A stretch of DNA of 64,000 nucleotides, taken from contig OZ281495.1 of NCBI GenBank assembly GCA_965637545.1, forward strand, positions 20,150,001 to 20,214,000. The letters run 5' to 3'. Source of the DNA: Phallusia mammillata. Its lineage: Eukaryota. Below, piece after piece: positions 7,613-45,783 of this stretch. The position numbers and the translations under genes were made by a program. Every line of letters begins with the position of its first letter. Position 1 is the first letter of the stretch. Under the pieces are notes generated by a model that worked only from the letters and a program-made list of their open reading frames with translations, did not search any database and was not told the DNA's origin.

Positions 7613-8210
7613 GTTTCTCTAGAAATTTGCTGGAAAACAACAATTGTAATTATTACTATTCCAAATCGTTTGGTTTGTTTACAGAGATTCTTCGAACGGA
7701 GCACATTTGTCACTGCATTTGATAGCTTTCATGTATTTTGCCCTTCTGCTTCCGATGCAGTATCTACAAGAAATGTGACCTAAGCGGCAAACATAATGAG
7801 CAGAAGCATACACCATTGGCCGCACTAGTCGTTTAAATCCCTAAGGATTAAGGTAATTTTAGCCAGTCATGTTGACCAAACGATCGATGAGTGGGCTCTC
7901 CAGAAACGGTCATTGATAATAATGGATTTACAAACTGATGACAGAAAATTTACGTGCCAAAGACAAGTGTAGGCTATGCAGACATACAGGCCATGTGTTT
8001 CCCATGCGACATTCAATTGACTTTAATCCTGATGTACCCAATTGCTTGTAGACTTTTCAAGGTGAGCAAATATGAACATTTAGTGAAACTAAGAAAATTT
8101 TTTGGATTGACCCTTTTTTGAATTTCAAAAATCCTTTATCCTACAAAAATACCTAAGTTATAAGCTTAATGCACAAAAAAAATAAAATAAAATGCAAACC
8201 ATTGAGGATT

Positions 8211-8260
8211 CATAGACGCTTCAGGGCTGACCCCAGTTATGAATTTATGTTCATCTTAAC
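8211..8260 (+). mobile_element. 50-bp truncated copy of the element at 45392-45688
   Basis: Reverse complement of 45392-45441 (1 mismatch); flanked by the direct repeat cattgaggatt (8200-8210, 8261-8271). Confidence 0.85.
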
Positions 8261-9495
8261 CATTGAGGATTGTGTCAAATTTTGCAATAAAATTTGACAT
8301 TTTTATGTTATATTAAGAAATGACAGCTTTATAATGATTTGTATCGTTTGACCGATGATGCACAAAACACTAGTGTTATTCATGTTGACTTTTTCAAGCA
8401 CAAATACAGAACATCTACCACAAAAGAGCGTAGATCGCTTTAGGCGTAGCTGCGGGAAGGAATTTTCCGATAAAATCTGGGGATAAAATTTCTTGACATG
8501 GATTTTGTCTGAGATATCCACAAAACTACTTTATCCTTTGCAAGTAACTTTTTCTTTCCGTTTATGGACACACAGTCTTCTGTGTGATAACTATGTCCGT
8601 TGCCGTCAGAGATATTCTTAGATCTTTCATGCGTATTTACAATGGTTAGGGCTCCAGATAAATCCATCATGGCCTGAGGGTTTAGCGCCAGGCCAAGCAG
8701 TCTGTCCGTTACTCAATCTATGAGTTCATTTTAATCCGTTTCGACGATAAGCTCGTGTTTGTGTTTACCGTTAGTGCGTCGCCGCTCAGTTCAAGGCAGT
8801 GTGTGATGAACCTGTGTTAGCCAATGTCAAGCGGTGCGACAGTACGAGATTGCTCTGTGGGGATGTAAGAAGATTTCCCCGCTTGCTGGTTGAGTACAGC
8901 ACCGAGTTATCGAACTATGCTGGGTTAGGATTAGTTCGCATGTACTTCTGTGTGTATGTCACGAGAGGAAAACTTAGCCTTATTGACTACATAGAATTAA
9001 ATAGCAGGGATTTCCCAAATAACCTTGGATCGTAGGCCGTCGCTCAAACTATTAGATTGTTGTACCTGTATATGCGTATGTGCGAAAAATAACATTTAAC
9101 TTCTTTTGATAGACGATAAAGCAATGTTGAAAAGTCAATCATAGTATGTAACTTTACCACCTTTGCCTTGGGTGCTGAATTTTATGTTTCTGCTTCAGGT
9201 AAGTGGTGATAAATATTAAACATTATCAACGTTCATTTTTTGGTATTTTTGAACGTTCATACAGTATTCAAATTAGCGCTCAACTAAGGCGAAATTCGCG
9301 ACCTATTGACCTTAACTTCGTTTCGCCAGAAAGAAGAACTTTTCTGGCGTGTGGTGGTACCAGGTCGTTGGTGTAAACAAATCGGATCTGTTTAAATATC
9401 GACTGCCACATTTCAAATACGGACAAGTTCAAATGTAGGTGGCTCGGAGAATTTAATGTGAAAGTTTTACAGGTACCGCTTCTGCTTCAAGTGCG

Positions 9496-45300: not shown

Positions 45301-45391
45301 ACGAACAGACAGAAAACCACCGGGAAAAAAATACCATTTAAAGGACAGGCTACACTTAACCTGACAAAAAATCCTAATTCAAATATTAACG

Positions 45392-45688
45392 GTTAAGATG
45401 AACATAAATTCATAACTGGGATCAGCCCTGAAGCGTCTATGCAGACCAGCGATCACGGCAGACTCATATATGAGTACTGGTCAATCTGGCGATCCCCTAC
45501 TACGAAGCTGATTTCCACTGAGCCTGTGTAGCTCAGTTGGTAAAGCGCGAGTCCCGGAAAGACTCCTGTCGTGGGTTCGAATCCCACCGCAGGCTAGATT
45601 TTTCTAGCCTCCGCCTTGCCATATGGTGGTGAATGCTTGGTGACCGACTGATTCGGTATAGCGCCTTCAATGGGCCTGGCGTACTGTG
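45392..45688. mobile_element. 297-bp SINE-like insertion with an internal tRNA-like module
   Basis: Exact 15-bp TSD attcaaatattaacg (45377-45391, 45689-45703); interrupts the hAT transposase remnant. Confidence 0.85.
45522..45595 (+). ncRNA. tRNA-like cloverleaf (anticodon position GGA) with a T5 Pol III terminator; probably not a translating tRNA
   Basis: Acceptor GCCTGTG/CGCAGGC, D arm GCTCAGTTGGTAAAGC, stem GAGTC/GACTC with loop CCGGAAA, T arm GTGGG-TTCGAAT-CCCAC, then agattttt. Confidence 0.65.
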
Positions 45689-45783
45689 ATTCAAATATTA
45701 ACGACAAGGTTAAAGCAGCCGAATTGCAACTAGCCGTAAGCATGACTTGTCATTGTGCCATGCGTTCAGTCGATTACCTAGGG

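Follow-up and report, generated by a model that had tools for sequence, protein, structure and literature searches.

A tRNA-bearing tandem retroelement of Phallusia mammillata that probably depends on Penelope-like elements and may use host tRNA splicing to make its template circular

The window analysed here, 64,000 nucleotides of Phallusia mammillata DNA (contig OZ281495.1, positions 20,150,001 to 20,214,000), contains a rearranged copy of a short retroelement whose family unit is a 355-bp head-to-tail repeat carrying a tRNA-like gene. The structure of this unit, its mobilisation as tRNA-sense RNA, its resemblance to Penelope-like elements (PLEs) and its dependence on them are together highly probable, which would make it a non-autonomous PLE. 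Mobilisation in trans by PLEs of the Neptune/Nematis type is likely. More tentatively, we propose that an element encoding neither an enzyme nor a ribozyme poses as an intron-bearing tRNA, and that the circle made from it by TSEN and RtcB would be copied by a Penelope-type reverse transcriptase; the chance of this full account lies somewhat below even.

Self-comparison of the window reveals a 297-bp insert (45392-45688) between identical 15-bp target site duplications (TSDs; 45377-45391 and 45689-45703), with neither poly(A) nor a terminal inverted repeat on the insert, as an earlier sequence-only reading had described. Mapped on the monomer of locus L014, in which m1 is the first tRNA base, the copy consists of the tail in inverted orientation (m250 to m172) followed by a direct arm from m255 round to m169, and is short of about 50 nt of leader. 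The inverted arm (45392-45471, minus strand), opposite in orientation to the 355-bp unit, holds the 81-nt tail; its outer end corresponds to S2, one of two sites at which ends cluster (see below). It includes a GTGATC box (45451-45456, minus strand), identified in a shared-helix comparison as the 3' arm of a helix that spans the other site, S1, in the intact unit. At the arm junction lies a 14-bp palindrome (45462-45475), a short fold-back found as a self-inverted match. The direct arm, on the plus strand, begins with a leader remnant (45475-45521; m255-355 with the ~50-nt deletion near 45511), the last bases of which can pair with the D arm in fold predictions, and continues into the tRNA-like cloverleaf (45522-45595).

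ARAGORN calls this cloverleaf tRNA-Ser(gga), and it matches Rfam RF00005 with 50.6 bits (E = 2.2e-9), compared to 55.3 bits for the family, from which the window copy differs by one change in the D stem. An A box (~45529-45540) and a B box (~45574-45584) can be read from the sequence. The anticodon-like arm (45549-45565) has a 5-bp stem, with CCGG at 45554-45557 and AAA at 45558-45560. It is followed by a hairpin (45591-45610) with five T residues (T5; 45599-45603) in its loop, the sole T-run of at least 4 in the unit; upon transcriptional read-through this hairpin is predicted to tie up the 3' acceptor strand. The cloverleaf, its CC-GGA-AA loop and short variable loop, and the 8-bp T5 hairpin were all correctly recognised in the sequence-only reading. 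Further downstream are the 5' arm of the conserved S1 helix (45643-45659, with a CTGATT box at 45648-45653) and S1 itself (45686-45690; m167-169), the outer end of the direct arm, whose last 2 nt overlap the right TSD. The second copy noticed in the window (8211-8260, plus strand) is 98% identical to the insert over 50 bp and flanked by an 11-bp TSD (8200-8210 and 8261-8271; up to 14 bp with overlap); it is a plain 5'-truncated sense copy of m201-251 ending at S2. About 80 bp to the right of the insert, from 45781 onward, a different repeat begins; its first bases look like the end of a hAT-type non-autonomous DNA transposon.

A genome-wide search with the 297-mer shows that it belongs to a real family but is not the family unit, since most copies match it in pieces of opposite orientation and the repeat, as at L014:1517-1871, is 355 bp. 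In the unit the tRNA-like gene (m1-74) is followed by the T5 hairpin, a body to m169, the 81-nt tail to m250 and a 105-nt leader. Exact 27-nt patterns gave 427 tail matches and 341 tRNA-arm matches in 240 Mb of genome, and older copies with 70-90% identity are common. From 151 loci entered, 89 distinct insertions were left once repeats and edge cases had been removed; 61 of these, termed young, share 92% identity or more with the unit, and 28 are older. A pattern scan of metagenomes for relatives of the unit returned 0 matches. Three old copies lie within 10 kb at L092 (G000:C6:15708700-15718600), and one of them, immediately after the final exon of a kinase-like gene, is present in long contigs of several runs. 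A 2374-nt contig considered as the autonomous partner was dropped because it led to an old decayed copy beside a host kinase-like gene, and a second lead to an autonomous partner gave no match.

The outer 3' ends of the insertions are concentrated at two fixed sites. With start-site windows of m160-177 (S1) and m241-260 (S2), together 38 of the 355 positions, 82 of 92 outer 3' ends of the 61 young inserts fall at S1 or S2, whereas few outer 5' ends (4 of 30) or inner ends (6 of 64) do; the two sites are 81 nt apart. Because the first search had selected for the tail, we repeated the count on 26 insertions found by the tRNA arm alone, with 35 of 41 outer 3' ends at the same sites. Adding the 28 older inserts to the young set gives 106 of 129, and in contigs of other runs loose ends accumulate at S1 and S2 too. 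The young inserts comprise 31 with two arms, which are inverted, and 30 with a single arm. In all 31 of the former the arms diverge, with the tRNA-sense 3' ends outward, and they never converge. The clustering of ends and the diverging arms imply that the copied RNA is tRNA-sense.

The sequence-only reading had instead taken the mobilised RNA to be antisense to an internal tRNA-like gene. The two copies in the window, taken alone, do look so, and the antisense strand of the unit folds better than shuffles (z = -3.9); the sense strand gives z = -2.4, and we dropped whole-unit folding energy as an indicator of strand. The proposed polarity is nevertheless wrong: intact units carry the fixed ends 3' of the tRNA on its own strand, all 31 inverted inserts diverge, and the PLE helix described below scores 25.2 bits in sense and 2.0 in antisense, leaving the antisense model a minute probability. 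The window copy seems antisense owing to the inversion of its first 80 bp, an arrangement present in 31 of the 61 young inserts; the tRNA seems internal since copying of the head-to-tail repeat begins at fixed start sites inside the unit. Other parts of that reading fared better. A non-autonomous, target-primed retroelement without poly(A) is supported, as is the view that the end retained by the 50-bp copy is where reverse transcription starts (S2). Random truncation at either end, named there as a refuting outcome, is not what the copies display, as 3' ends are fixed at S1 and S2 and 5' ends are random.

S1 and S2 are used together. Both ends can be classified in 24 of the 31 inverted inserts, and 23 of these have one S1 end and one S2 end. 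Abutting TSDs of at least 8 bp are found in 36 of the 61 young inserts, with a mode of 13. TSDs of 9-15 bp and 5' inversions occur with LINEs as well, which counts for an ordinary LINE-driven tRNA SINE with twin-priming inversions. Judging by the insertions and PLE 3' ends compared here, we consider this explanation very improbable: the junctions have no poly(A) or simple-repeat tail, the outer ends lie at two fixed internal sites, a pattern whose S1/S2 pairing weakens it further, the helix is common with PLE 3' ends and the tRNA is not the 5' end. The pairing of one S1 end with one S2 end per inverted insert points to one protein dimer that primes both strands at different sites, and the pairing result holds even if the circle model fails.

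Stops of the cDNA show no comparable preference for the tRNA end. Only 4 of 72 cDNA passes stop at m1 and the other 68 run on beyond it; stops in the m1 zone are not enriched (4 versus 5.8 expected), there is no pile-up at m1 or m75, and none at the predicted splice site (3 versus 2.9). Single arms reach 1041 nt, and the stop rate is near constant. Lacking a fixed 5' end, the copies agree with a circle or with long multimers and not with a tRNA-headed SINE transcript. This bears on two alternatives that accept PLE mobilisation. One is a SINE-like unit in which the cloverleaf serves solely as an internal promoter for Pol III, the templates are linear read-through multimers and the bulge-helix-bulge (BHB) described below arises by chance. 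The intact A and B boxes, the single T5 per unit and all the PLE hallmarks agree with it, and selection on the promoter accounts for the conserved D and T arms. Starts at m1 should, however, leave 5' ends at m1, arms of 2-3 units require several read-throughs, and the invariant anticodon arm is unexplained; we therefore regard this alternative as unlikely. Somewhat less probable still is the copying of long Pol II transcripts through tandems, with the tRNA as a captured passenger or an RNase P/Z site. It accounts for the absent fixed 5' end, PLEs do insert into host tRNA arrays (L123), which offers a route of capture, and hammerhead cleavage is dispensable for the element PAc in vitro, as described in the available text of PMC11167929. 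A passenger should drift like the body, yet the tRNA part is the least changed; in addition, m1 and m75 lack a pile-up of stops and the acceptor stem is predicted to be sequestered within long transcripts.

We observe a weak excess of stops near S2, 11 versus 4.6 in all 107 arms (P = 0.007, uncorrected) and 7 versus 3.8 when the 83 young arms alone are counted (P = 0.10). In the window copy, and likewise in L002, the two arms cover one unit between them and each stops close to where the other starts, a weak additional hint. Within young inserts, 40 variants are common to all passes of an insert and 111 are pass-specific; the shared variants fit a circle and a uniform tandem master alike. Among 19 distinct variants at template level, six read A to G on the sense strand, with three found in L312 alone, and RNA editing of the template is one possibility.

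Candidate partners are present in the genome. We find 148 GIY-YIG matches, and PLE frames of 700-970 residues with a reverse transcriptase (RT) and, at the C-terminus, a GIY-YIG domain, behind which lie hammerheads; among them are elements with RT, Zn-finger linker and C-terminal GIY-YIG. PLEs with the Cys linker appear to fit Neptune/Nematis as defined in the accessible text of PMC8557442, an assignment made from the linker. Tails of the local Zn-finger PLEs are ~80-87 nt, their TSDs are 11-15 bp where readable, and the tail is at one end only in 9 of 10 autonomous PLE loci with output (15 entered). As far as the available text of each goes, PMC8557442 attributes to PLEs partial tandems, an inverted 5' copy and a tail at one end, and PMC11167929 has PAc extending both strands from two internal sites and models it as a dimer. 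The insertion hallmarks, together with an S1 helix common with autonomous PLEs, make the Penelope-type partner suggested from the sequence alone a good guess.

At BLAST level no identity was found between the unit and autonomous PLEs among ~160 PLE loci, apart from loci with a unit copy close by. The unit was also missed by a profile built on a free alignment of 18 PLE tails. Pairwise comparison places the L135 family among the closest to the unit (1 of 300 shuffles), with the same bases at S1. With a three-box model whose training set was 11 of the 18 autonomous tails, the unit scores 25.2 bits, located between S1 and S2. None of 128000 window positions and none of 2000 shuffles score as high (best shuffle 25.1); the boxes and training families were picked after the unit was known and one spacing was widened by 3 nt. 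Poseidon-type tails score ~1 and five other Zn-finger tails below 10. Boxes one and two are the arms of a single helix enclosing S1. Across the unit and seven autonomous Zn-finger families, 70 of the 80 flanking pairs are formed between cognate arms, a value reached by 146 of 40320 permutations, which is not a clean probability because the families are related. The arms of the unit pair 14/14 with each other and less with those of any partner. The link between the unit and PLEs, as judged from sequence comparison, thus lies at the level of motif and structure. The cloverleaf is located upstream of the first box, the position of the hammerhead in autonomous elements. The conserved S1 helix is a candidate RNA signal bound by Neptune/Nematis-type proteins, and this stands even if the circle model fails.

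Several PLE loci deserve separate mention. L125 (G000:C8:5586000-5595900) is a perfect 3300-bp tandem with an intact 942-residue PLE frame in identical copies, and the family is likely active, judging by its sequence. L127 has an intact local Zn-finger PLE frame of 959 residues. The tails of the Zn-finger PLE families L244, L252, L149, L279 and L235 fall outside the three-box model, which implies more than one kind of start-site signal in the genome. At L123:1817-6891 (G000:C4:7515500-7525400) an inverted-pair PLE with a 12-bp TSD lies inside a host tRNA-Leu/tRNA-Met array with a period of ~486; such insertion is a possible route for a PLE end to capture a tRNA gene. The tRNA genes near PLEs at L098 and L123 were considered as pseudo-LTR components and rejected, being the host Leu/Met array. 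On the minus strand of L343:1130-1540, a decayed L179-type PLE pseudo-LTR follows, within ~20 bp, an old copy of the unit that ends at S2, through either a template jump or nested insertion.

The tRNA mimic is the most constant part of the unit. Subfamily B is identical to subfamily A over m1-89 and has ~26 differences in the 266 positions elsewhere (Fisher P = 0.007 without 27 ascertained sites), so the cloverleaf is conserved in the family, as the sequence-only reading required; recombination between subfamilies could also cause this identity. The two template-level changes inside the cloverleaf, T6C and A38T, preserve its structure. The anticodon arm is invariant in both subfamilies, and no compensatory changes are seen in the CCGG or the anticodon stem. 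Both promoter boxes are intact in the sequence and in the Rfam alignment. Features of a decoding tRNA are absent, as C33 replaces U33 and a GGA anticodon is combined with a short variable loop. One extra base is present between the D and anticodon stems, which could shift the TSEN ruler. Comparison with potential parent tRNAs shows that the D arm matches host Tyr, while the T arm is closer to a Lys/Thr-type gene. The genome also contains a large tRNA-Lys(TTT) tandem array with a period of ~324 (L187-L212; G000:C1 ~30.95-31.01 Mb), in some units of which base 37 is changed and the loop ends in GA. At L161:1321-1395, a tRNA-Thr(CGT) call has a body nearly that of host tRNA-Lys, possibly an anticodon switch or a pseudogene. 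A 74-nt contig with exact tRNA ends was rejected as RNA evidence because both its ends are graph branch points, where records overlap by 30. We found no ribozyme in the unit: no Rfam ribozyme family matches at E up to 10, and the hammerhead core CTGANGA occurs on neither strand, although the same pattern detects the PLE hammerheads.

The loop sequence suggests another function for the mimic. Bases 32-35 are CCGG, a palindrome, and bases 36-38 are AAA; some palindrome is expected at these four places in 1 of 16 random loops. Combining the 5' half of the tRNA of unit 1 with the 3' half of that of unit 2 gives a predicted stem, AAA bulge, four-pair helix, second AAA bulge and stem, a strict BHB of the kind defined in the available text of PMC6614914 and PMC10485636. 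The predicted splice site is at the canonical 37/38, corresponding in the window copy to a point between 45559 and 45560 on the plus strand of a two-unit transcript, and the predicted C32-G proximal pair, 3-nt bulge and 6 nt to the 5' exon end agree with the fly rules as given in the text of PMC6614914. The "intron" of the split tRNA is exactly one unit.

For a natural stretch from the tRNA start to the next T-run, the unconstrained fold is the split tRNA. Of 14 natural dimers, in which the BHB probability ranges over 0.00-0.95 (0.22 for L014), 8 have the BHB as their minimum-energy fold. None of 8 host tRNA-Lys dimers does so, and among 45 spacer shuffles 2 do; because the 14 dimers are related, this amounts to about two independent cases. 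L089, whose forced energy is invalid owing to a changed stem base, was scored as a miss. The split acceptor stem was dropped as support because it forms in all 45 shuffles and also in 6 of the 8 host dimers. In the dimer fold the T5 hairpin sequesters the inner 3' acceptor strand and the leader sequesters the inner D arm, and extending the RNA past the second T5 is predicted to abolish the split acceptor. Some observations are less favourable. Full pairing between anticodon and intron reduced tricRNA yield in fly and human reporters, according to the text of PMC6614914, and the helix here is fully paired with four G-C pairs, at odds with a TSEN substrate helix that is "not too strong". Host tRNA-Lys genes end in T5 too, so read-through may be rare. 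A splice-junction footprint gave no signal, with an A missing in 1 of 91 loops. The host does possess two tRNA-endonuclease catalytic domains and an intron-bearing tRNA-Tyr. RtcB closes ribozyme-cut monomers in retrozymes, as presented in the available text of PMC7229834, and TSEN would thus supply the same end chemistry.

In the splicing-circle model, Pol III would start at the tRNA of one unit using the A and B boxes, sometimes pass the first T5 and stop at the next. One cloverleaf is predicted to arise from tRNA 1, contributing its 5' half, and tRNA 2, contributing its 3' half, with the two CCGGs paired between two AAA bulges. TSEN would cut both bulges and free exactly one unit, and RtcB would close it as it does for tricRNAs. 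A PLE protein dimer would then bind the S1 helix, nick both target strands ~13 bp apart, prime one strand at S1 and the other at S2, and copy round the circle until falling off, which would produce partial tandems and back-to-back arms. That the tRNA mimic makes the template circular through host tRNA splicing has, in our estimate, a chance falling just short of even. With the same reservation, no other single model would explain as well the unusual loop, the hairpins on either side, and the lack of both a ribozyme and a fixed 5' end.

The element combines features of several known systems. Like tRNA-derived SINEs it has A and B boxes in a short retroposon. In those SINEs the tRNA head marks the 5' end and loses its cloverleaf by decay, whereas the unit retains its cloverleaf at a place other than the 5' end and lacks a LINE tail. 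SM-alpha of Schistosoma is a tandem repeat with likeness to tRNA and a hammerhead; the present unit has no hammerhead. Animal non-LTR retrozymes, as far as described in the available text of PMC7229834 and bioRxiv 10.64898/2026.07.22.740005, share with the unit non-coding tandems of ~350 nt and long TSDs and, with its proposed route, an origin in or dependence on PLE pseudo-LTRs and the proposed RtcB-closed monomer circles; the text of the 2026 preprint (bioRxiv 10.64898/2026.07.22.740005) derives them from PLE pseudo-LTRs. As defined there, non-LTR retrozymes have a type I hammerhead per unit, whereas the 355-bp unit has none and carries a tRNA mimic instead. MRC1 of Chlamydomonas, a non-autonomous PLE, shows head-to-tail multicopy insertions and likeness to an autonomous 3' end, as here, and the Chlamys/Naiad group has no canonical hammerhead, like the unit (available text of PMC8557442). 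That text makes no mention of a tRNA module in MRC1, and the likely partner here differs in having a C-terminal GIY-YIG domain and hammerheads. In PAc and Poseidon, as presented in the text of PMC11167929, two internal starts also define the tail and both target strands are cut and extended, but the tail is 30-40 nt compared to 81 nt here, a length in line with the local Zn-finger families, and the template here is non-coding. The tricRNA pathway, in the available text of PMC6614914 and PMC10485636, resembles the predicted fold in its cloverleaf body, C-G proximal pair and 3-nt bulge, and the model in its cut at 37/38 and intron closure by RtcB. It differs in that the "intron" here is a whole unit holding both tRNA halves, the BHB is strict and fully paired, and the circle would be a transposition template. 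Overall, the element would work like a non-LTR retrozyme without the hammerhead that defines one, and its insertions behave as those of a non-autonomous PLE and not as those of a SINE.

Our literature search, which covered mostly open-access main texts, found neither a tRNA-bearing PLE parasite nor a tRNA-splicing retroelement. Screens based on hammerheads miss such elements, and tRNA finders label them tRNA-Ser. If the splicing-circle model is true, a self-complementary tRNA mimic replaces the ribozyme that such parasites usually carry, host tRNA splicing serves transposition, and animal TSEN would have a natural job outside tRNA.
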